Part shown: positions 9,841 through 30,118 of the stretch, piece after piece
How the letters are laid out: each line of letters opens with the position of its first letter
Numbering within the stretch: position 1 is the first letter of the stretch
Source of the DNA: an uncultured Actinomycetota bacterium
Lineage (GTDB): Bacteria > Actinomycetota > Actinomycetes > JAHEKZ01
Length of the DNA stretch: 64,000 bases
Reading direction: 5' to 3'
Assembly: GCA_963743915.1 (NCBI GenBank)
Contig: CAVURN010000002.1
Span: forward strand, 288,001-352,000
Made by a program: the position numbers and the translations under genes
Notes under the pieces: model-generated
What the model was told of the DNA's origin: nothing
What the model saw: only the letters and a program-made list of their open reading frames with translations
Databases searched by the model: none

Positions 9841-9945
9841 GTCGCAGCGACCCGACCGCTCACGTTCCTGCTGCGTGGACCGAGCCTAACCGGCGGACTC
9901 GGCGCCGCAGATGCCGTCGGCACCCGGCTCGTCTAGCGTTCGACC

Positions 9946-10641
9946 ATGGCATCCGACGATCCCGACAGCCGACCCTCGATCGCTGCCACCCGGAACGGTC
10001 CGTACCGCGTCCGCGGGGTGAGCCGCATCGTCTGGCGCGAGCCGGTCAAGACCGAGGCCGGCGAACCCATCGCCTGGCGGACCGGCGAGATCGTGGCCGA
10101 CGAGGAGAAGGAGTACTGGCTCTGTCGCTGCGGGAACTCGCAGAACAAGCCGTTCTGCGACAGCAGTCACCGACGGGTCGGCTTCGAGGCGAAGGACATG
10201 GCCGACACCGCGCCGAGAGCGGACCGTCTCGCGTCCTACGGCGAGGAGCCGAGCCTCGACGACGACCGCAGCCTCTGCTCACACGCCGGGTTCTGCGCCA
10301 CCACGGCGACCAATGCGTGGAAGGTCGCGGCCCGCAAGGATCTCGACACCGAGGGTCGTTCCCAGCTGATCGCGATGGGACAACGGTGCCCCTCAGGGGC
10401 GCTCACCGTACGCATGGATGAAGACGTCCTCGAGCCGGCGCTGCCCGTCGAGATCGCTCTGGTTCCCGATGGACCGCTCTGGGTGACGGGTGGCGTCCAG
10501 GTGGAGCGCTCGGACGGAGCGGAGCTCGAGGTGCGCAACCGCATGACGCTGTGTCGATGCGGGGCCTCGAAGAACAAGCCGCTGTGTGACGGCTCCCACG
10601 CCGACGTCGGCTTCGCGCACCGCCCGAGCCGGCCCGAGTAG
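9946..10641 (+). CDS. CDGSH iron-sulfur domain protein (two CDGSH domains around a divergent 4Fe-4S domain)
   Basis: CRCGNSQNKPFCDSSH, CSHAGFC...CPSGAL, CRCGASKNKPLCDGSH; TAGCGT-N6-ATG. Confidence 0.9.
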   Translation: MASDDPDSRPSIAATRNGPYRVRGVSRIVWREPVKTEAGEPIAWRTGEIVADEEKEYWLCRCGNSQNKPFCDSSHRRVGFEAKDMADTAPRADRLASYGEEPSLDDDRSLCSHAGFCATTATNAWKVAARKDLDTEGRSQLIAMGQRCPSGALTVRMDEDVLEPALPVEIALVPDGPLWVTGGVQVERSDGAELEVRNRMTLCRCGASKNKPLCDGSHADVGFAHRPSRPE

Positions 10642-21484: not shown

Positions 21485-22843
21485 TCATTTCCTGGAGCGC
21501 TTCTCGCGCACCTTCATCGTGATGTGCAGTGGCGTCCCGACGAATCCGTACTCCTCGCGGAGCCGACGCTCGATGAAGCGTCGGTAGCCGGACTCGAGAA
21601 ACCCGGAAGTGAAGAGTGCGAAGGTCGGTGGCTGGGTACCGGCCTGCGTGGCGAAGAGGACGCGTGGCTGCTTGCCGCCCCGGACGGGATGAGGATGCTC
21701 GGCGATGAGCCTGCCGAGGAACGCGTTGAGCTGCGCAGTCGGAATGCGGGTCGACCAGCCTTCGAGTGCGGCGTGGATGGCCGGCACCAGCTTCTCCATG
21801 TGGCGCCCGGTGGACGCCGACACGTTCACCCGCGGTGCCCACGGCACCCGGACCAGCTCGCGTTCGATCTCCTTGTCGAGGTAGTACCTGCGTTCGTCGT
21901 CGAGCAGGTCCCACTTGTTGTACGCCAGCACCAGGGCTCGGCCCGCCTCGACCACCATCGAGATGATCCGCGTGTCCTGCTCGCTGATCGGCTCGCTCGC
22001 ATCGATCAGGACCACCGCCACCTCGGCTTTCGCCAGGGCGGCCTTGGTGCGGAGGCTGGCGAAGTACTCACTGCCACTGGCCTCGTGCACGCGCCGTCGG
22101 ATCCCGGCGGTGTCGACGAACCGCCACTCCTCTCCCCCGAGCTCGATGAGCTCGTCGACCGGGTCGACCGTCGTGCCGGCGACGGAGTCGACCACGACCC
22201 GGCTCTCCCCCGCCAGGCGGTTCAGCAGGCTCGACTTGCCCACGTTCGGGCGTCCGAGCAGTGCCACGCGGTGCGGGCCGCCCGCCGCTGACTCGGCCGG
22301 CTCGACAGGCGGCATCGCCGCCAGCAACGCGTCCAGCAGGTCACCGGACCCTCGTCCGTGCAAGGCAGACACCGGCATGGGCTCGCCCAGCCCGAGCGAC
22401 CACAGGGAGGCGGCCTCGAGCTCGGAGCGGTGGCTGTCGACCTTGTTCGCCGCCAGGACCACGGGCTTCTTCGCGCGACGCAGCACCTGGACGACTGCCT
22501 CGTCCGTGTCGGTGATCCCGACCTCGGCGTCCACCACGAGAAGCACGACGTCAGCAGCCTCGACGGCGAGCTCGGCCTGCGCCGCCACTCTCGCCGACAA
22601 CCCCTGAGCATCCGGCTCCCAGCCTCCGGTGTCGACGACGATGAAGTCGCGGCCGGACCAGCTGGCGTCGTAGGCGACCCGGTCACGGGTGACGCCGGGA
22701 CGGTCCTCGACCACGGCCTCGCGACGTCCGAGGATGCGGTTGACGAGCGTGGACTTGCCCACGTTGGGCCGACCCACGACAGCCACCACAGGAAGGGCCG
22801 CATAGGTACGGCCCGTCTCGACGGTGTCGTCGGCCTCGGTCAC
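21485..22843 (-). CDS. der: Ribosome biogenesis GTPase Der
   Basis: Two G domains (GRPNVGKS x2, DTGG/DTAG, NKVD/NKWD) and KH-like C-terminus. Confidence 0.98.
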
Positions 22844-22858
22844 GATGACAGTCTCTCG

Positions 22859-23560
22859 TCAGGACGCGGCGACGCTCGGGACGCGCTCGCGCACGAGCCC
22901 CACCACGTGGTCCACGACCTCGTCGAGGCTCATCCGGGTGGAGTCGATGAGCACCGCGTCCTCTGCCTGGGTGAGTGGTGACAGCTCGCGCGTGCTGTCC
23001 AGATGGTCGCGTTGGTCGAGCATGGCGGCGGTGTGCTCGACGGTGAGCCCGTGCTCCTCGGCCCACTCAGCAGCACGCCGTTCGGCCCGGGCCTCGGTGG
23101 ACGCCACCAGGAAGACCTTGACCGCGGCGTCGGGCGCCACGACCGTGCCGATGTCACGGCCCTCGACGACGACCGGTCCGCGCTCCATGATCTCCCGCTG
23201 CACGGCGACCAGCCTGGCCCGGACCTCCGGCACGGCGCTCACGGCGCTCACCGAGGAGGTGACGTGGGGGTCGCGGATCTCGTCACTGACCTCGCGGCCG
23301 TCGACGAAGACGGCTGGGGCGCGGGGATCCACGGAGATGTCCAGGAGCGGCTCCTCGACCCGACCGGCCACGGCAGCGGGGTCATCGACGTCGACACCTT
23401 GGTCGATGAGCCACCAGGTCAGAGCCCGGTACATGGCACCGGTGTCCACGTAGTTCCAGCCCAGCCGCACCGCCACTCCTCGTGCGGTGCTCGACTTCCC
23501 CGAGCCAGAAGGGCCGTCGACGGCGACCGCGATGAGGGCGCCCGAGGCGTCGTGCACCAT
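22859..23560 (-). CDS. cmk: Cytidylate kinase
   Basis: DGPSGSGKSS, DTGAMYRA, EGRDIGTVV. Confidence 0.97.
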   Translation of the reverse strand: MVHDASGALIAVAVDGPSGSGKSSTARGVAVRLGWNYVDTGAMYRALTWWLIDQGVDVDDPAAVAGRVEEPLLDISVDPRAPAVFVDGREVSDEIRDPHVTSSVSAVSAVPEVRARLVAVQREIMERGPVVVEGRDIGTVVAPDAAVKVFLVASTEARAERRAAEWAEEHGLTVEHTAAMLDQRDHLDSTRELSPLTQAEDAVLIDSTRMSLDEVVDHVVGLVRERVPSVAAS

Positions 23561-23680: not shown

Positions 23681-24772
23681 TCAGTGGGCCGACCAGCCGG
23701 CGGCGCGCAGCGCCTCGGTCAGCGGGGCCGCCTGGTCCGGGGACACCGACAGCTCGACCAGCCCGACCGGGTGCCCGGCCGAGTGCTCGAGCCGGATGTC
23801 CTCCACGCTGGCCCCGGCGTCCGCCACCGCGACGAAGAGAGCCGCCAGCGCTCCGGGCTCGTCCGGGATCACCACGGGGACGACCGCGTAGTCGGTGGCC
23901 GGCGTCCCATGCTTGCCGGGGATCCGGGCGTATCCCTCCTGACCTGCAGCGATCAGACGCTTGATGGCTTCATCGACTTCACGTCTTGTCGACTTGTCTG
24001 CAGCATGATCCGCCAGTGCGGCCCCGACGTCGGTGATCTCCTGGCCCAGGCTCCGCAGCAGGGGACCCACGACGGCGGCGTTCGCGGCCAGGATGTCGCT
24101 CCACATCGTGGCGTCGCTGGCGGCGATCCGGACGGTGTCCCGCAACCCCTGTCCGGCGAGCACCATGGCCTCTGCGCTCGCCTGCCGAAGCTCACCCGCC
24201 AGCGCGCTGGCCACCACCTGAGGGAGGTGCGAGACCAGCCCGACCGCCTGGTCGTGCTCCTCCGCCGACATCCGCACCGGATCGGCCCCGCAGTCCCGCA
24301 CCAGACGCTCCACCAGAGCCACCCGATGGTCCGGGACGCTGCTCGCCGCGCACACCGCCCACGGCCGGGCCTCGAAGAGGTCGGCTCGAGCCGCCGTCGC
24401 CCCGCTGCGTTCCCGCCCCGCCATCGGATGACCCCCGACAAAGCGCTCGGAAACCCCTAATCTCTGCGCCTCCAGTTGAGGGTCATACTTGATGCTCGAA
24501 ACATCACTAACCGTCGCCGAAGGATACAGACGGATGCACTCCTCCATGACCAGTCCCACCGCAGAGGGTGGCACGGCCAGCAGGATGAGCTCAGGGGCGT
24601 CCTCACACCAGCCCGCCTTCCCTGCTCCCAGGTCGGCCGCGACACGTTCCGCGCGGGGATCGGTGTCGTGGATCCACACCTGCCAGGGACGGTCCGAGAG
24701 GGCGAGACCCACCGAGGTCCCCAGAAGGCCGGCCCCCACGATCTGGAGCACAGCCTCCTCAGACCGGCTCAT
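23681..24772 (-). CDS. tyrA: Prephenate dehydrogenase with ACT domain
   Basis: GAGLLGTS, DVSSIK, GGHPMAGRE, HD.AV.LVSHLP, C-terminal ACT (IPDEPGALA). Confidence 0.95.
   Translation of the reverse strand: MSRSEEAVLQIVGAGLLGTSVGLALSDRPWQVWIHDTDPRAERVAADLGAGKAGWCEDAPELILLAVPPSAVGLVMEECIRLYPSATVSDVSSIKYDPQLEAQRLGVSERFVGGHPMAGRERSGATAARADLFEARPWAVCAASSVPDHRVALVERLVRDCGADPVRMSAEEHDQAVGLVSHLPQVVASALAGELRQASAEAMVLAGQGLRDTVRIAASDATMWSDILAANAAVVGPLLRSLGQEITDVGAALADHAADKSTRREVDEAIKRLIAAGQEGYARIPGKHGTPATDYAVVPVVIPDEPGALAALFVAVADAGASVEDIRLEHSAGHPVGLVELSVSPDQAAPLTEALRAAGWSAH
23974..23998. repeat. Motif B array inside tyrA (3 x 8 bp)
   Basis: CGACTTCA CGTCTTGT CGACTTGT; surrounding codons A/T-ending (GAT CAT GCT GCA, ACA AGA CGT GAA). 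Confidence 0.65.
24460..24484. promoter_or_regulatory. Degenerate motif A site inside tyrA
   Basis: ATCTCTGCGCCTCCAGTTGAGGGTC; codons GAC CCT CAA CTG GAG, AGA TTA, GTT AGT GAT GTT break the GC3 bias. Confidence 0.55.
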
Positions 24773-25128
24773 TGCGCGAGATCCTGTCGCAGCACCTCGG
24801 CGCCCCTCAGGTAGACGTGCACGATCTCGCCCCGGGGGCGGTCCAAGGCAGCGTGGGCCATGACCCGCACGACGCGCGGGAGGGCACCGACCACGTCGAG
24901 CTCCTGGGCACAGATCAGGGGCACGTCACCGATCCCCAGCGTGCGGGCCGCGGCGGCCGGGAAGGCGCTCCGGAGGTCGGGCGTGCTCGTGAAGATCACA
25001 CTGATCAGGTCGTCCGTGGTCAGGTCGTTCCGGGCTAGCAGCTCCCCCATCAGCTCGACCACGGCGTCGGCCATCTCGGTGGCGTCGTCGGCCCGCAGCT
25101 GGGTGGCTCCGCGGAGTGCTCTGATCAC
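24769..25128 (-). CDS. aroH: AroH-type chorismate mutase
   Basis: RALRGAT, FTSTPDL, FPA.AAR, CAQE, YLRGAEVLRQDL; TAGGGT-N6-GTG leaderless. Confidence 0.95.
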   Translation of the reverse strand: MIRALRGATQLRADDATEMADAVVELMGELLARNDLTTDDLISVIFTSTPDLRSAFPAAAARTLGIGDVPLICAQELDVVGALPRVVRVMAHAALDRPRGEIVHVYLRGAEVLRQDLAQ

Positions 25129-25177
25129 GGCGTCACCCTATCGGCCCCTCGATGAGCAGAGAACACGCCACATCGTC

Positions 25178-25440
25178 ATGTCGACTTCGTGTCTCGCCAA
25201 GTCGACAAAGTTCCTTTCGGAGAATCCCCTCCGCGCACGGACTCCAGGGGGTCCGGATCCCCCACCGACTTGTCGACATGCGGCGTTTCGTGGGGACTCT
25301 CCCTGCAGGTCAGGACCGCATCGCCCGGCTGGGCGATTCACGGGCAGCAGATCGGTCTGCCCCTCCGACTTGTCGACAAGCCGATGGCGGCGCCATGCCA
25401 GCGCCTCGCCTCACTATTTACCGACTAACCGACAAGTCGA
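25178..25440. repeat. Motif B cluster in rluB-aroH gap
   Basis: ATGTCGACTT-N11-AAGTCGACAA (25178-25208), CCGACTTGTCGACATG (25265), CCGACTTGTCGACAAG (25365), CCGACTAACCGACAAGTCGA (25421-40). Confidence 0.8.
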
Positions 25441-26176
25441 GAAGGTCCATCAGCTCACCCTGCTCATGACGGGTGAGCAGTCGGACCCCTCCGGGCCGGA
25501 GTCGACCGAGGCGGATGGGGCCGAACTGCAGCCGCACGAGGCGTCTCACCGGGAGTCCCACCTCGTCGAGCAGCCGGCGCACGATCCGGGTGCGGCCCAG
25601 GTGCACGGTGACCTCCACCTGGGCCTCGCCACCGGACTGGGCGACCAGCCGGAAGGCATCCACCGCGGCCGGTCCGTCCTCGAGCTCCACCCCTGCCCGC
25701 AGGCGACGGCCGACGTCCTTGGCGACCGGCCCGGAGACGACCGCCCGGTAGACCTTGGGCACCTCGAAGGACGGGTGGGCCAGCCGGTGGGCCGCCTCCC
25801 CGTCGTTGGTCACCAGGAGCAGCCCCTCGGTGTCGATGTCCAGCCGTCCGACGTGGAAGAGCCGTTCCGGACGGTCGGCCACCATGTCCCCCACGCACGG
25901 GCGCCCCTCGGGGTCCTGCATGGTGCTGACGGTCCCCAAGGGCTTGTTCAGCGCCAGGTACACGACGCCGGGAGCCGTGGGGATGCGCTCTCCGTCCACC
26001 CGGACCACCGCACGGGTCGGATCCACCCGCATCCCCTGCGTCCGGACGACCGTGCCGTCCACCGAGACCCGACCGGACGCGATCAGCTCCTCAGCGGCCC
26101 GACGGCTGGCGATACCAGCGGCCGCCAGGACTTTCTGGAGGCGAATACCCTCAGGCTTTGATTGAGGGTTAGTCAT
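25418..26176 (-). CDS. rluB: 23S rRNA pseudouridine synthase (RluB/RsuA family)
   Basis: RLQKVLAAAGIASRR S4 domain, LNKP, GRLDIDTEGLL. Confidence 0.93.
   Translation of the reverse strand: MTNPQSKPEGIRLQKVLAAAGIASRRAAEELIASGRVSVDGTVVRTQGMRVDPTRAVVRVDGERIPTAPGVVYLALNKPLGTVSTMQDPEGRPCVGDMVADRPERLFHVGRLDIDTEGLLLVTNDGEAAHRLAHPSFEVPKVYRAVVSGPVAKDVGRRLRAGVELEDGPAAVDAFRLVAQSGGEAQVEVTVHLGRTRIVRRLLDEVGLPVRRLVRLQFGPIRLGRLRPGGVRLLTRHEQGELMDLLDLSVSR
26146..26170. promoter_or_regulatory. Motif A site in first codons of rluB
   Basis: TACCCTCAGGCTTTGATTGAGGGTT; perfect ACCCTCA-N9-TGAGGGT. Confidence 0.75.
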
Positions 26177-26790
26177 AATTCGGCTTCAAGCGTCTCAAGA
26201 TCGGGGAGATAGGGCGCGATCTCTGGTAGCTCGTCGACGGAGGCGAGCCCGAGTCGCTCGAGGAAGTAGCTGGTGGTCCGGTAGAGGTGGGCGCCGGTTT
26301 CTCCGTCCGTCCCACACTCCTCGACCAGGCCCCGCGCCAGGAGTGTCCGCATCACCGCGTCCACGTTGACGCCCCGCACCGCCGAGATGCGGGCCCGGGA
26401 GACGGGCTGGCGGTAGGCCACCACGGCCAGGGTCTCCAGGGCGGCCTGAGTCAGTCGGGCGTGCTGGCCGTCGAGGACGAACCGTTCGACCGCCGTGGCG
26501 TATGCCGGGCTGCTGTAGTAGCGCCAGCCGCCTGCCACCTCACGCAGCACGAACCCGCGCCCCTGCTCGGCGTACTCCCCCGCGAGCTGCACGCAGGCCG
26601 CTGCGACCTCGGCCTCGGGGCGTTGCAGCACCTGCGCCAGCGTGACCGGGGCCACGGGCTCGTCCACCACCATCAGGATGGCCTCCAGGGCCGGGGCCAA
26701 CGCCAGCTCCTCGGCAGCCTGCTCGGTCTCAGCAGAAGGGTCGGTGTCGAGCGCCTCGTCAGGTGGCAGGTCCTCGGTCACGTCACTCAC
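26173..26790 (-). CDS. scpB: SMC-Scp complex subunit ScpB
   Basis: LEAILMV, LTQAALETLAVVAYRQPVSR..I..VRGV, Y.TT..FL. Confidence 0.96.
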   Translation of the reverse strand: MSDVTEDLPPDEALDTDPSAETEQAAEELALAPALEAILMVVDEPVAPVTLAQVLQRPEAEVAAACVQLAGEYAEQGRGFVLREVAGGWRYYSSPAYATAVERFVLDGQHARLTQAALETLAVVAYRQPVSRARISAVRGVNVDAVMRTLLARGLVEECGTDGETGAHLYRTTSYFLERLGLASVDELPEIAPYLPDLETLEAEL

Positions 26791-27664
26791 GGGTGTCCTC
26801 TCCGGCCGGCGGGACCGACGGCAGGTCGCGGGCATCGTCTTCGTCGAACTCGTCGTGGAGGTCGAGGTCGCCCTCGTCCGCGCCCGTCCACCGGACGGTC
26901 AGCTCCGCCAGCGGCTGGACCTGGTCGAAGGCCACGGCACCCTCACGGAAGAGCTCCAGCAGCGCCAGGAAACGGGCGATCACCGTCGTCGTGTCGCCGG
27001 CATCCCCCACCAGGGCACGGAAAGTGGCGGTCCGGCTGCGCCGCAGGCGGCTCACGAGCAGGGTCGCCTGCTCCTTGACGCTCACCGCCGGCGCGTGCAC
27101 GTGGCCGAGCGACACCTCGGGCACCGGCTTGGGCGTGAGCGCCTTGGCCGCCAGCGCGGCGAAGCCGTCCGGACCCACCCCGATCAGCACCTCCGGCAGC
27201 AGCGAGGCGAACTCCGGTTCCAGGCCCACTGCACGCGGGTAGCTCCGACCCGCGTGCGCCATGATCGAGGCCAGCTCGGCGGCCACCGTCTTGTAGGCGC
27301 GGTACTGCAGCAGCCGCGCGAAGAGCAGGTCGCGCGCCTCCAGGAGGGCGAGGTCGTCCTCGTCCTCGACCTCCGCCGAGGGCAGCAGGCGGGCGGTCTT
27401 GAGGTCCAGCAGGGTGGCCGCGACGACCAGGAAGTGCGTGGTCTGCTCGAGGTCCCAGGCGTCGCCGGCCGCCTTGATGTGGGCGATGAACTCGTCGGTC
27501 ACGACGCCGAGGGCCACCTCGGTGACGTCCAGCTTGTGCTTGGCGATCAGCCCCAGCAGCAGGTCGAACGGCCCCTCGAAGACCGGCAGGTGGACGTGGA
27601 ACGCCGCAGCCCCGGACTCCTGCGATGCATCGGGCACCGCAGGCTCGGTCGTGGTCGAGGTCAC
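26783..27664 (-). CDS. scpA: Segregation and condensation protein ScpA
   Basis: FEGPFDLLL.LI, FLVVAATLLDLK, FLALLEL; TACGGT-N6-GTG. Confidence 0.96.
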   Translation of the reverse strand: MTSTTTEPAVPDASQESGAAAFHVHLPVFEGPFDLLLGLIAKHKLDVTEVALGVVTDEFIAHIKAAGDAWDLEQTTHFLVVAATLLDLKTARLLPSAEVEDEDDLALLEARDLLFARLLQYRAYKTVAAELASIMAHAGRSYPRAVGLEPEFASLLPEVLIGVGPDGFAALAAKALTPKPVPEVSLGHVHAPAVSVKEQATLLVSRLRRSRTATFRALVGDAGDTTTVIARFLALLELFREGAVAFDQVQPLAELTVRWTGADEGDLDLHDEFDEDDARDLPSVPPAGEDTRE

Positions 27665-27718
27665 GGCGGAACCGTAGCCCAGGCGCCTGCCCGCCGGGCG
27701 ACCGGCGGGGCAGCCGGG

Positions 27719-28126
27719 TCAGCCCTCGCGCAGCCGACGGGCCACGATGCTCGCCTCGCCCTTGGCCGCGAGGTCGGCGACGACCACGGCCACCGCCTCA
27801 CGCACGATCCGGCCGCGGTCCACCTTCAGGCCCAGGTCGCGGTAGAGGGTCGACTTGGCCTCGTCGAGCGCGACCAGCTCGTCCGACGACAGGTAGACGG
27901 TGATCTTCTCGTCGTGCCGCTGGCGGCCCGACGGACGGCCCGCTCCCCGCTGCGCGCGCGAGGCAGGGGGTGCGATCTCTCGATCTTTAGGTGAGGTAGA
28001 GACTGTTTCCCCATCTGGGGATCGGGGCTGTGGAGGGCTGGTCTCGACCGCCTCGGCGAGAGCGGACGCCGACGAGGTGGTGCGGAAGAGCTCGGAAGCC
28101 CCTGGGAGGGCGGCGCGGCGACTCAT
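27719..28126 (-). CDS. Small ParA-associated protein, predicted C-terminal ribbon-helix-helix DNA-binding domain
   Basis: N-terminal MSRRAALPGASELF peptide, disordered linker, EKITVYLS (beta) - helix - VDRGRIVREAV (helix); start overlaps parA stop. Confidence 0.75.
   Translation of the reverse strand: MSRRAALPGASELFRTTSSASALAEAVETSPPQPRSPDGETVSTSPKDREIAPPASRAQRGAGRPSGRQRHDEKITVYLSSDELVALDEAKSTLYRDLGLKVDRGRIVREAVAVVVADLAAKGEASIVARRLREG
27975..28004. promoter_or_regulatory. Degenerate motif A site inside the RHH-like gene linker
   Basis: CTCGAT CTTTAG GTGAGG TAGAGA CT; codons GAA ACA GTC TCT ACC TCA CCT AAA GAT CGA are atypical. Confidence 0.45.
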
Positions 28127-29034
28127 CGGGCGAGCACCTCCTGCGCCAGCTGACGATAGGCGGCGGCTCCTGGCGACTTCGACGCGTAGCTGGTGATGGG
28201 CTCCCCCGCCACCGTCGTCTCCGGGAACCGGACGGTCCGGTTGATCACCGTGTGGTACACCCGGTCGCCGAACGCCTCCACCACCCGGGTGAGCACCTCG
28301 CGGCCGTGAGTCGTGCGGCTGTCGTACATGGTGGCGAGAATGCCATCAAGCTCTAGTTGAGGGTTAAGCCTTTCGGTCACCTTTGAGATGGTGTCCATCA
28401 GCAGAGCGACCCCTCGGAGGGCGAAGAACTCGCACTCCAGCGGGATGATCACCCCGTGCGCGGCCGTCAGTGCGTTCACCGTCAAGAGGCCCAGCGAGGG
28501 CTGACAGTCGATGAGGACGTAGTCGTAGTCGTCGGCGATGGTGGCCAGCCCGCGCCCGAGGGTCTGCTCCCGCGCGACCTCACCGACCAGCTGCACCTCG
28601 GCGGCTGACAGGTCGATGTTGCTCGGCAGCAGGTCCATGCCGGCCGTGTTGGTCTTCAGCAGGATGTCCTCCGCCTCGACCCCGCGGTCCATCAGCAGGT
28701 TGTAGACCGTGCGGTCGAGCTCGTGCGGGTTCACCCCGAGCCCGACCGACAGCGCCCCCTGGGGGTCGAAGTCGACGAGCAGCACCCGGCGCCCGAACTC
28801 GGCCAGAGCAGCGCCCAGGTTGATGGTCGTGGTGGTCTTCCCGACGCCGCCCTTCTGGTTGCACATGGCGATGATCCGCGCCGGACCGTGCTCGACGAGC
28901 GGTTCGGGCACCGGAAAGACCGGCAAGGGGCGCTGCGTGGGGCCCAGGGCACCCACCTGACCTGCGGAGATGCCGTCGTCGGCGACGTCCGGTGGGACCT
29001 CTGCGGCATCGGGGGTATTTGTCGACTTAACCAC
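28123..29034 (-). CDS. ParA/Soj-family ATPase (second ParA; Rv1708/PldP-like)
   Basis: NQKGGVGKTTT deviant Walker A, VDFDPQG, IDCQPSLG; upstream of scpAB. Confidence 0.95.
   Translation of the reverse strand: MVKSTNTPDAAEVPPDVADDGISAGQVGALGPTQRPLPVFPVPEPLVEHGPARIIAMCNQKGGVGKTTTTINLGAALAEFGRRVLLVDFDPQGALSVGLGVNPHELDRTVYNLLMDRGVEAEDILLKTNTAGMDLLPSNIDLSAAEVQLVGEVAREQTLGRGLATIADDYDYVLIDCQPSLGLLTVNALTAAHGVIIPLECEFFALRGVALLMDTISKVTERLNPQLELDGILATMYDSRTTHGREVLTRVVEAFGDRVYHTVINRTVRFPETTVAGEPITSYASKSPGAAAYRQLAQEVLAR
28341..28365. promoter_or_regulatory. Motif A site inside parA
   Basis: TGCCATCAAGCTCTAGTTGAGGGTT; codons GAA AGG CTT AAC CCT CAA CTA GAG CTT GAT GGC ATT are atypical. Confidence 0.7.
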
Positions 29035-29083
29035 GAATCTCTAAACCTCTCGGCAGACTTCACGACAAACCGTTCGCAGCCTA
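29019..29083 (-). promoter_or_regulatory. parA promoter with interleaved B-A-B sites
   Basis: -10 TAGGCT (29078-83); GACTTCACGACAA (29056-68), A half-site ATCTCTAAACCTC (~29037-49), TTGTCGACTT (29019-28). Confidence 0.6.
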
Positions 29084-29137
29084 GGCGGCGGTGACCGTGG
29101 GTGGCAACCCTGGTCGACTCCGGGTGGGTGCTGCCGG

Positions 29138-30118
29138 TCAGCCTCTGGCCCGTGGATGGGCCGCGGCGTAGACCTCGCGCAGCTTGTCCACCGTGACCAG
29201 CGTGTAGATCTGCGTGGTCGTCACGGAGGCGTGGCCGAGCAGCTCTTGCACCACGCGCACGTCGGCTCCGCCGTCGAGCAGGTGGGTCGCGAAGCTGTGG
29301 CGGAGGGTGTGGGGCGAGACGTCCTCGGTGATGCCGGCGTGCTCGGCGGCCGCCCGGAGCACGGTCCAGGCGCTCTGCCGGCTCAGCCGACCGCCCCTGC
29401 TGTTGAGGAACAGAGCGGGGACCCCGGAACCACGCTCGGCCAGGGGTGGGCGTCCACGGACCAGATAGGCCTCGAGCGCCTCGGTCGCGTACCGGCCGAC
29501 GGGGACCACCCGCTCCTTGCCCCCCTTCCCGGCCAGCCGCAGGACCGCCGACTCCCGGTCGAGATCGTCGACGTCGAGGCCCACCACCTCCGAGATCCGC
29601 GCACCCGTGCCGTAGAGCAGCTCCAGCAGCGCCCGGTCCCTCAGCTCCTTGGGAGTCCGGCCCTCGCCGGCGGCCGCGAGCAGGGCCTCGACCTGGTCGT
29701 ACCGCAGCGCCTTCGGCAGCCGCCGGGGTGGCGCCGGGGGCCGGACGTCCGCCGCCGGGTCCGTGGGAGTCAGCCCCTCCAACGCCGCGAACCGGTGGAA
29801 CCCGCGGACGGCCACCACGGTGCGGGCTGCTGAGGAGGCCGCGAGCGGTGGATGCTCCACGTCGCCCTCGCGCAGCCGGCCGAGGAAGGCGAGCACGTGC
29901 CCCTCGGTGACCTCGTCCGGTGCATGGACCCCGACCTCGCGCAGGAAGGTGAGGTAGCGCGCCAGGTCACGCCGGTAGGACGTCATCGAGTTGCGGGCCA
30001 GACCTCGCTCGAAGGTCAGGTGGTCGAGGTACTGGCGGACCGCCACCGACACCGGCGTGTCGCCGTCGGCGGGCCGCTCACCTGGCTCCGACTGCGGAGC
30101 TCCGGCGGTGCTGGGCAT
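29138..30118 (-). CDS. xerD: Tyrosine recombinase XerD
   Basis: [58 protein letters not shown]. Confidence 0.95.

Follow-up and report, generated by a model that had tools for sequence, protein, structure and literature searches.

What are the short, regularly phased repeats for that lie in the 289-bp gap between the rluB-type pseudouridine synthase gene and the chorismate mutase gene aroH of an uncultured Actinomycetota bacterium? The gap belongs to the stretch of DNA considered here, the window (G000:C2:288001-352000, 64 kb), which comes from a 2.9-Mb genome of 70% GC held in 5 contigs. An earlier note on this DNA had proposed that the gap is the centromere analogue of a partition system formed by a parA-type gene and a small neighbouring gene (rhh), whose 135-amino-acid (135-aa) product would be of the ribbon-helix-helix type. 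Across the phylum, the boxes track the small gene that follows parA and do not track aroH. The reading favoured here with moderate confidence, on the strength of sequence comparison, is that ATPase, small protein and boxes form a chromosomal, terminus-side analogue of the type Ib plasmid partition modules, in which the arrays may be operators as well. The link between gap, parA leader and small protein finds good support in independent comparative tests; the gap is the densest of several arrays, others lying within tyrA and over the parA start and leader, and is not the sole site.

The repeat unit is an 8-bp palindrome, TGTCGACA, iterated in an 8-bp register. When the TCGA-centred sites in the gaps of nine species of the genus are lined up, they yield a core T-R-T-C-G-A-Y-A, flanked on both sides, at a distance of 8 bp, by weaker CGA boxes; in its ideal form the site is palindromic over 18 bp and can alternatively be read as GTCGAC hexamers with two A/T bases between them, and other species carry a variant box, TATCGATA, besides TGTCGACA. 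The register was assessed in 17 loci with a 10-column core matrix that holds no flank information. Of 50 pairs of core matches no more than 40 bp apart, 26 were spaced by 8 bp, 6 by 16 bp and 3 by 24 bp, in agreement with the 8-bp period read by eye from the gap, and the boxes stand mostly in rows of two or three in that register. Eight boxes lie in this genome's locus, six of them within the gap or at its edge, one in tyrA and one on the parA start. The sites, with their matrix scores, and the promoter predicted beside them are as follows.

23974..24000: box array within the tyrA coding sequence, at about codons 258-266 (18.7 bits)
25173..25213: proximal box pair, cores TGTCGACT and AGTCGACA, 21 bp apart (15.9 and 15.4 bits)
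25265..25284: array made up of CCGACTTGTCGACA and its flank; the central TGTCGACA has a weaker CGA box at 8 bp on its left (20.3 bits)
25365..25384: three-box array, CCGA / TCGA / CCGA in 8-bp register (25.3 bits)
25413..25440: phased run of three CGA-cored boxes over the rluB stop and the last rluB codons (14.8 and 16.6 bits)
29014..29033: box over parA codons 1-7 (GTG GTT AAG TCG ACA AAT) (15.8 bits)
29056..29071, minus strand: degenerate box TTTGTCGTGAAGTC over the predicted parA transcription start and early leader
29078..29107, minus strand: predicted parA-rhh promoter (-35 TTGCCA at 29102-29107, 18-nt spacer, -10 TAGGCT at 29078-29083)

The individual sites listed in the earlier note can all be recognised among these. 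The inverted pair TGTCGACTT-N11-AAGTCGACA is present at 25179-25207; the two copies of CCGACTTGTCGACA at 25265 and 25365 stand exactly 100 bp apart; the 8-bp-phased run noted at the rluB stop (codon 25418-25420) is a CGA-cored run at 25421-25440, inside the last rluB codons; the phased triple in tyrA is found at 23974-23998; AAG TCG ACA does make up parA codons 3-5; and the copy in the parA leader is the degenerate box at 29056-29071. This last box has the left half of a gap box, lies 48 bp from the start-codon box and falls below the matrix threshold in this genome. The proximal pair is situated about 51-79 nt upstream of the aroH start, the tyrA array lies between the dehydrogenase domains and the ACT domain, and the array at 25365..25384 is a near-perfect 18-bp palindrome that gives the top match in the whole 2.9-Mb genome to a matrix trained on other species.

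Is this clustering more than the accident of a common palindrome? GTCGAC is frequent, with 5216 copies in the genome, and a weaker, simple test of the 64-kb window is borderline (GACTTGTCGAC with at most one mismatch is matched 5 times where 1.98 matches are expected, a count attained in 5 of 100 shuffles), both of which would suit a chance clustering of SalI-like sites, the relic of a small repeat element or a structured RNA. The box taken with its flanks behaves otherwise. The 20-column matrix used for it was built from 28 boxes in the gaps of 8 other species of the genus, with this genome excluded from training; its scores are circular in the training set (L002-L009) and independent in this genome and in other families. 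At 13 bits or more there are 17 matches genome-wide, 8 of them at window positions 23981-29033; above 14 bits, 8 of 14 fall within C2:311981-317014 (window 23981-29014); and above 16 bits all four matches, the genome's top four, are in the locus. The probability that at least 8 of 17 matches fall within 20 kb is 1e-13. Five genomes simulated with an order-3 Markov model hold on average 31.2, 19.2 and 7.2 matches at 13, 14 and 16 bits, respectively. Outside the locus, the real genome has 9 matches against about 31 simulated at 13 bits and none against about 7 above 16 bits, and the box is therefore depleted there and concentrated inside. The 14-mer CCGACTTGTCGACA has two copies in the genome, both in the gap, where the order-3 Markov model expects 0.06 genome-wide, and both genomic matches of the two-box pattern CGAYWWRTCGAYW are in the gap as well. 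A motif at background frequency, which the earlier note had named as counting against its proposal, is not what these counts and simulations describe.

The plain 8-mer TGTCGACA is itself scarce, with 42 genomic copies against 65 expected, and the genome-wide depletion of the box may be due to selection that removes stray sites or to a shortcoming of the Markov model. An Rfam scan of 24500-26000 at E ≤ 1 returned no match, and the inverted pair, folded as an RNA hairpin, reaches -15 kcal/mol with a z-score of -1.06, which is ordinary. Given, further, that array positions are kept in nine genomes of the genus while the rest of the gap is unalignable, chance, repeat remnant and RNA structure can be considered refuted for practical purposes.

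Within the genus, a blastn comparison of the gap with 40 relatives produced an alignment at the aroH end only, and the conservation of the boxes is therefore shown by position and matrix. Arrays stand at the same offsets upstream of the aroH start, about 45, about 115-135 and about 210-235 nt, in 9/9 genus gaps, and these offsets, unlike the matrix scores, are free of circularity in the genus relatives. The array over the rluB stop is also present in the other genomes of the genus, and one species whose gap measures 100 bp has two arrays. The region upstream of parA is much better conserved than its surroundings in 7/7 genus genomes, with a stretch of about 60 nt around the leader box near-invariant in the seven. 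Its order is constant, running from -35 and -10 elements (TTGCC. and TAGAGT; TAGGCT here) through a box perfect in its left half to the start-codon box, at a distance of 48 bp; all seven thus carry boxes both at the start codon and where parA transcription is predicted to begin. The N-terminus of ParA is variable, tblastn alignments beginning at residue 20-30 in most relatives, and the conserved start-codon box is therefore a feature of the DNA. The tyrA array, too, is at the same place in 7/7 genus genomes (L010-L015 included). Its GC content at third codon positions is 0.36-0.57 over 14 codons as against 0.65-0.83 for the whole gene, in genomes where A/T-ending codons are rare, and it is putatively a binding site paid for in codon usage.

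The position of the boxes in front of aroH raises the question of an operator. A TANNNT hexamer lies 6-7 nt before the GTG of aroH in 9/9 genus genomes (here TAGGGT, 25135-25140) and is kept in L009 though Shine-Dalgarno-like bases are lost there, a pattern that suggests that aroH is probably leaderless; a scan of 25050-25500 with consensus promoter and terminator models gave 0 promoter-like and 0 terminator-like sites. The nearest boxes are upstream of the likely -35 region, and an added regulatory effect on aroH is possible. The earlier note had offered, as its alternative, an operator of a leaderless aroH promoter, and the fixed distance of the proximal pair from the aroH start in nine genus genomes, about 50-66 nt, would suit an aroH-tyrA operator for an aromatic amino-acid regulator. 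The leaderless promoter appears correct. Against an aroH-specific operator, the same box sits on the parA promoter, and a matrix scan of this genome reveals no regulon-like further copy elsewhere.

The comparison extends beyond the genus. By profile search the small gene was found in 52 of 201 sampled genomes of the phylum, six unpublished ones included (46/195 without those six), and it runs in families, being present in 4/4, 14/14, 12/13 and 13/14 genomes of the positive families and in 0/6, 0/10, 0/14 and 0/13 of the negative ones. The genus-trained matrix was then applied to 35 published genomes with the small gene, in which the protein is 35-66% identical. In 31/35 of these genomes, the 400 nt that precede the ParA Walker-A region contain a box scoring 12 bits or more, and in 26/35 one scoring 14 bits or more; among 1176 other 400-nt windows taken from these loci, only 6.9% attain 12 bits. 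At least three matches of at least 13 bits occur in 16 of 20 20-kb loci with the small gene. None of the four loci that have the same synteny and no small gene contains a match of 13 bits or more over 19 kb, and the highest score upstream of parA is 5.6 bits. Such controls keep the order xerD-parA-scpA-scpB-rluB(-aroH-tyrA)-cmk-der, with parA abutting scpA.

Two further cases separate the small gene from aroH. In G136 the rluB-aroH gap is present, and both the small gene and the boxes are absent; in L051 and L052 boxes surround parA-rhh with no aroH within 20 kb. The earlier note had conceded that a motif tracking aromatic amino-acid genes rather than parA would speak against it; the boxes follow parA and the small gene, and an operator dedicated to aroH-tyrA is disfavoured to the point of being very improbable.

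Within the 20 loci, boxes recur in the linker of the small gene, in the interval between the small gene and scpA, after tyrA and near cmk and der, with boxes in the rluB-aroH gap in 10/20; the arrays of other families span about 5-15 kb. In five other genomes from four families, the two-box pattern CGAYWWRTCGAYW matches 25 times, 24 of them no more than 14 kb from the small gene; the reversed control pattern gives one match in the same five genomes. Single two-box sites (G072:C21:172818 and G173:C3:47537) are located 13-14 kb past the small gene, beyond der, and the box domain may reach past the 20 kb inspected. In one family (L053-L056, L062, L063, L067), 2-4 kb with one or more unidentified genes are inserted between the small gene and scpA; the insert is bracketed by box arrays, one of them 25-50 nt before the scpA start. 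Other lineages (L049 of G093, L019-L022, L048, L057 and L066) combine the small gene with only one or two weak boxes, placed far upstream of parA, and lack secondary arrays; one such family has genomes of 7.5-9.2 Mb. In these, the box may have drifted, or secondary arrays may be a lineage-specific elaboration elsewhere. A search of 5 genomes for the exact 10-mer TTRTCGAYAA gave 0-7 sites in each, of which only a part are at the locus, and is too strict to inform.

A cluster of DnaA boxes was also considered and rejected. Compared with TTGTCCACA, which we take to be the actinobacterial DnaA box consensus, the gap boxes have G, not C, at position 6. No TTRTCCACA occurs in the gap or in the 10-kb region, the genome's sole such pair being on contig C1, and the boxes track the small gene, not dnaA.

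Given that the boxes accompany the small gene, the setting and the product of that gene become the next concern. All genes around the gap, from der through the XerD-type recombinase, are on the minus strand.

21485-22843, minus strand: der
22859-23560, minus strand: cmk
23681-24772, minus strand: tyrA, prephenate dehydrogenase
24769-25128, minus strand: aroH, chorismate mutase type I (Pfam CM_1, 6e-41)
25418-26176, minus strand: rluB-type pseudouridine synthase (Pfam PseudoU_synth_2 and S4), with the last box array in its 3' end
26173-26835, minus strand: scpB
26783-27664, minus strand: scpA
27719-28126, minus strand: 135-aa open reading frame (the small gene, rhh), candidate box-binding protein, no Pfam match
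28123-29034, minus strand: second ParA-type ATPase, 303 aa (Pfam AAA_31, 2e-61, and CbiA)
29138-30118, minus strand: XerD-type recombinase

The start of the small gene overlaps the parA stop in this genome (ATGA), and according to tblastn coordinates the two genes abut or overlap by 1-2 bases in most loci across the phylum.

The 135-aa protein has three parts, namely an N-terminal peptide (MSRRAALPGAxELFR), a variable and disordered linker, and a C-terminal strand (KITVYLS) followed by two helices. It belongs to a large family that is nameless to date: 7439 homologues at E ≤ 0.001 were found in a collection clustered at 90% (464 representatives at the 50% level), none with a Pfam domain, and those that carry a name are all called 'hypothetical protein'. 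In 61 diverse members H71, K74, T76, Y78, E83, L84, D103, R104, G105, R106 and R109 are invariant. The alternate strand residues K74, T76 and Y78 (K-x-T-x-Y) are unchanged in all the families in which the two-box pattern was traced, which fits a box that is unchanged across the phylum. The N-terminal peptide with its two arginines (R3/R4) is conserved at 35-45% overall identity, and it can be matched without gaps to the N-terminus of the organism's own ParB, where the basic pair, the glycine and the hydrophobic pair recur with identical spacing; this resemblance is a lead only. In other families two or three phased boxes are embedded in the linker of the small gene (L053 at about 9946, L056 at about 9936-9944, L063 at about 9955-9963, L067 at about 9947-9955, and others), where they encode K-S-T-(K/N)-L-Q-V, and part of the 'disordered linker' sequence is therefore dictated by the DNA site. 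Some family members are longer (P0122 with 1514 aa, P0150 with 303 aa, and P0126, P0142 and P0145 with 227-250 aa) and have the C-terminal domain at the end; these could be fusions, proteins with long linkers or products of miscalled starts.

Sequence searches with the single protein against Pfam, NCBIfam and the PDB gave nothing meaningful, and a search of the ESM Atlas with residues 62-135 returned hypothetical actinobacterial clusters only. Four of the 61 homologues have a sub-threshold match to Pfam RHH_3, the sole family matched by more than one member. A designed TIM barrel at E 0.0011 (threshold 0.001), the only near-threshold row of the profile searches, was taken as spurious. In the AlphaFold2 model the linker has low confidence and the C-terminal domain is a block with a predicted local distance difference test (pLDDT) of 78-93, comprising an extended segment (73-80) and helices at 81-98, 104-121 and 127-134. 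Compared with 48,161 representative chains, this model has ribbon-helix-helix proteins at ranks 1-4, with TraM twice (Z 4.5 and 4.4), the ParB of plasmid pCXC100 (Z 4.3, 20% identity) and YiiF, and at lower ranks XACb0070, ParD2, TacA, CopA, PutA, MazE6, NikR, omega and SegB. A ribbon-helix-helix fold of the C-terminal domain is hence probable in the light of the model, and the assignment made in the earlier note fits both model and fold search, at Z-scores that are low; low values are to be expected for a domain of 50 residues. A prediction of the complex of two ATPase copies, ATP and residues 1-40 of the small protein, run without controls, scored 0.00 and speaks neither for nor against an interaction.

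The predicted layout of the protein is the one described for the centromere-binding proteins of type Ib modules, and the module is therefore read as a chromosomal type Ib-like one. Such proteins combine a flexible N-terminal tail, which stimulates the ATPase, with a dimeric ribbon-helix-helix domain, according to sections of PMC3074162. The array at the operon doubles as the par operator in that type; the box positions here agree with this, and binding by the small protein is suggested by co-occurrence. The plasmid context, on the other hand, is missing: the module is chromosomal in every genome seen, and it is therefore filed as working like these modules and not as a member of the plasmid family. 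A tblastn search of 72,556 plasmid records found no homologue of the protein.

Comparison with particular systems shows where the likeness holds and where it ends. In ParF-ParG-parH of TP228, as here, a Walker-type ATPase precedes a small protein that joins a flexible N-terminal tail to a ribbon-helix-helix domain (predicted in the present case); parH, which presumably has an 8-bp period, is a single plasmid site of about 100 bp, whereas this locus has palindromic 8-mers over 5-15 kb of chromosome near the terminus, and no similarity in sequence can be detected. In part of PMC3130281, parH is described as a series of short, degenerate boxes whose spacers are rich in A/T. The delta-omega-parS system of pSM19035 is represented in the fold list by omega (Z 3.1), but it belongs to a Firmicute plasmid and its proteins are unrelated in sequence. 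Its contiguous arrays of short repeats lie in several promoters, act as both operators and centromeres, and consist of non-palindromic 7-bp units. Omega itself is of the ribbon-helix-helix type, and its N-terminal tail stimulates the ATPase, as PMC3074162 states in the relevant section. The best fold match among centromere-binding proteins is ParB of pCXC100, a plasmid of the actinobacterium Leifsonia xyli (3no7_B, Z 4.3, root-mean-square deviation 3.5 over 55 residues, 20% identity). The same section portrays that protein as having a flexible N-terminal domain of about 65 residues and a C-terminal ribbon-helix-helix that sequence searches could not predict, and its centromere as unspaced short repeats bound cooperatively (PMC3074162); unlike here, it is plasmid-borne, with nine 9-bp non-palindromic direct repeats in a single block.

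For the geometry of the boxes themselves, the closest parallel is the metbox operator, with tandem 8-bp palindromic boxes of which MetJ places one dimer on each and requires two or more adjacent ones, according to part of PMC3228920. MetJ, unlike the candidate here, is a metabolite-controlled repressor of a dispersed regulon with no ATPase partner, and no Pfam MetJ match was found in the 135-aa protein or in 61 homologues. Archaeal SegAB combines a chromosomal ParA-type ATPase with a small site-specific DNA-binding protein whose sites lie beside the operon (portions of PMC8682754 and PMC12139799), and the SegB-DNA complex is in the fold list at Z 3.2; it differs in being archaeal, in lacking sequence similarity, in its sites and spacing, and in not being described as terminus-side. 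ParABS (type Ia) likewise joins a ParA ATPase to a site-specific adaptor, for which the small protein is the candidate here, and to clustered sites, and the N-terminus of its adaptor has a basic peptide followed by a G...L(I/F) pattern as here, but the 135-aa protein has neither ParB_N nor a helix-turn-helix, and its sites would be near the terminus and not near oriC.

The ATPase is the second element of the module. Its 303 residues match ParA-type families only in Pfam, with no N-terminal helix-turn-helix domain; NCBIfam ParA-type models match it below their cut-offs; and KGGVGKT, its deviant Walker A motif, is the same in all of 26 orthologues. A canonical parA-parB pair lies on contig C3 beside dnaA, with the genome's only ParB_N match, and the ATPase of the window is therefore a second ParA paralogue. 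From gene order and reviews it is presumed to be the orthologue of actinobacterial ParA2/PldP (Corynebacterium glutamicum Cg1610, Streptomyces coelicolor SCO1772, Mycobacterium tuberculosis Rv1708), likewise a second ParA, the window's copy adjoining xerD and scpAB. A second parA-like gene (ParA2 SCO1772 / PldP) is ascribed to all actinobacteria in part of PMC4255298. PldP is described as an orphan whose ATPase is not stimulated by ParB and whose partner 'has yet to be identified', in a preprint (bioRxiv 10.1101/2025.07.02.662783, 2025). Several whole sampled families are without the small gene.

Where on the chromosome does this cluster lie? In four near-complete replicons its distance from dnaA is 49.1 (G006), 49.8 (G091), 53.4 (G136) and 48.0 (G178) per cent of the replicon; G006 and G091 carry the small gene, and G136 and G178 (L078 and L080) are without it. 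Consequently, the terminus-side position belongs to the gene cluster and not to the boxes. GC skew, profiled on contigs C1-C3, turns from positive to negative at about 200-280 kb of contig C2, and the locus is at 313 kb, roughly 30-110 kb away. With the cluster opposite dnaA in 4/4 of these replicons, xerD at its flank and scpA and scpB inside it, the boxes might be thought to serve, through the small protein or a co-occurring factor, some other task of the terminus such as a fork barrier, the loading or unloading of SMC-ScpAB or a landmark for Xer and FtsK. Known fork traps have polarity, and palindromic boxes have none. In addition, loci that lack both boxes and small gene do not differ in position or in having xerD and scpAB as neighbours, and no feature ties the boxes specifically to SMC or Xer, so that a task of this kind appears improbable.

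The mechanism proposed for the type Ib-like module can now be put together. One ribbon-helix-helix dimer would sit on each 8-bp box, with adjacent dimers cooperating; the 135-aa protein would coat the arrays at its own promoter, leading to autoregulation, and also those over the neighbouring 5 kb (in other families as much as about 15 kb). This would create, near the terminus, a nucleoprotein patch, the cargo or docking site that stimulates the ParA-type ATPase and is positioned by it. Because most arrays are in promoter regions, they would probably tune the promoters of parA-rhh, aroH and, in other families, scpA. The links of this chain are not equally strong. That the 135-aa protein binds the boxes we infer from co-occurrence with high confidence; that it partners the ATPase is likely; and it is about as likely as not that the complex goes beyond regulation and serves positioning or segregation. 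'Centromere' is used for the arrays as a hypothesis.

Several observations weigh against the partition-type reading. The ATPase and the gene order persist in whole lineages that have neither small gene nor boxes, and the ATPase is thus not dependent on the box system everywhere. Among the loci and genomes that do have the small gene, 4/20 loci have one box or none at 13 bits (L048, L049, L057 and L066) and 4/35 genomes show nothing that attains 12 bits in the 400 nt upstream of parA; moreover, members of one family are not independent of each other, and the counts overstate the statistical weight. As to the fold, Z-scores of 3-4.5 can reflect a mere common arrangement, Foldseek found no match in the PDB at E ≤ 0.001, and profiles built from 30 and 61 homologues reach no curated ribbon-helix-helix family. 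Finally, most arrays are intergenic or in promoters, which a purely regulatory protein would explain equally well.

This last point leads to the alternative that deserves the most serious attention, namely that the small protein is a local transcription factor only, which represses or co-regulates parA-rhh, aroH-tyrA and, in other families, scpA, with no contact between ATPase and arrays. At parA the array extends over both the start codon and the predicted start of transcription, arrays of other families lie 25-50 nt before the scpA start or just before aroH, lineages without the small gene retain the ATPase, and ribbon-helix-helix proteins are classic repressors acting on tandem boxes, as portrayed in part of PMC3228920. 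A plain repressor would, in contrast, have no need of the conserved basic N-terminal peptide and the variable disordered linker. Nor does it readily account for the arrays within coding sequence that distort codon use (tyrA here, the rhh linker and cmk in other families), or for the coupling of the small gene to parA by overlapping stop and start across the phylum. The two roles coexist in known plasmid systems, in the account given in a section of PMC3074162. A transcription factor and nothing more is, on balance, rather unlikely.

What would the partition-type module mean for these organisms? Tentatively, many Actinomycetota may possess a terminus-side partition-type system composed of ParA2/PldP, a ribbon-helix-helix adaptor and a 5-15-kb box domain opposite oriC. 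In such a dedicated system, the coated domain would be held at mid-nucleoid by the ATPase; after replication of the terminus its copies would be parted, the closing septum cleared and the choice of division site tied to the state of the terminus. The system would be a chromosomal variant of a kind already known. The published literature, supplementary files lying outside the search, yielded no ribbon-helix-helix partner and no box cluster for ParA2/PldP.

If true, the proposal would provide the first case in bacteria of a chromosomal centromere-binding protein that is a ribbon-helix-helix protein, and would supply the missing partner of the PldP family in those lineages that have it. PldP/ParA2 has been under study since 2010, and the question of its partner becomes testable with a concrete candidate named, its DNA box defined and the arrays mapped to one terminus-side region. 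The locus also offers clean examples of putative binding sites placed in coding sequence at a cost in codon usage. To our knowledge, actinobacteria are without Min, Noc and MatP. Were the small protein to prove both a binder of the boxes and an activator of the ATPase, it would break the rule, as worded in part of the literature, that chromosomal centromere-binding proteins are helix-turn-helix ParB proteins, and it would open terminus positioning in actinobacteria to direct tests.

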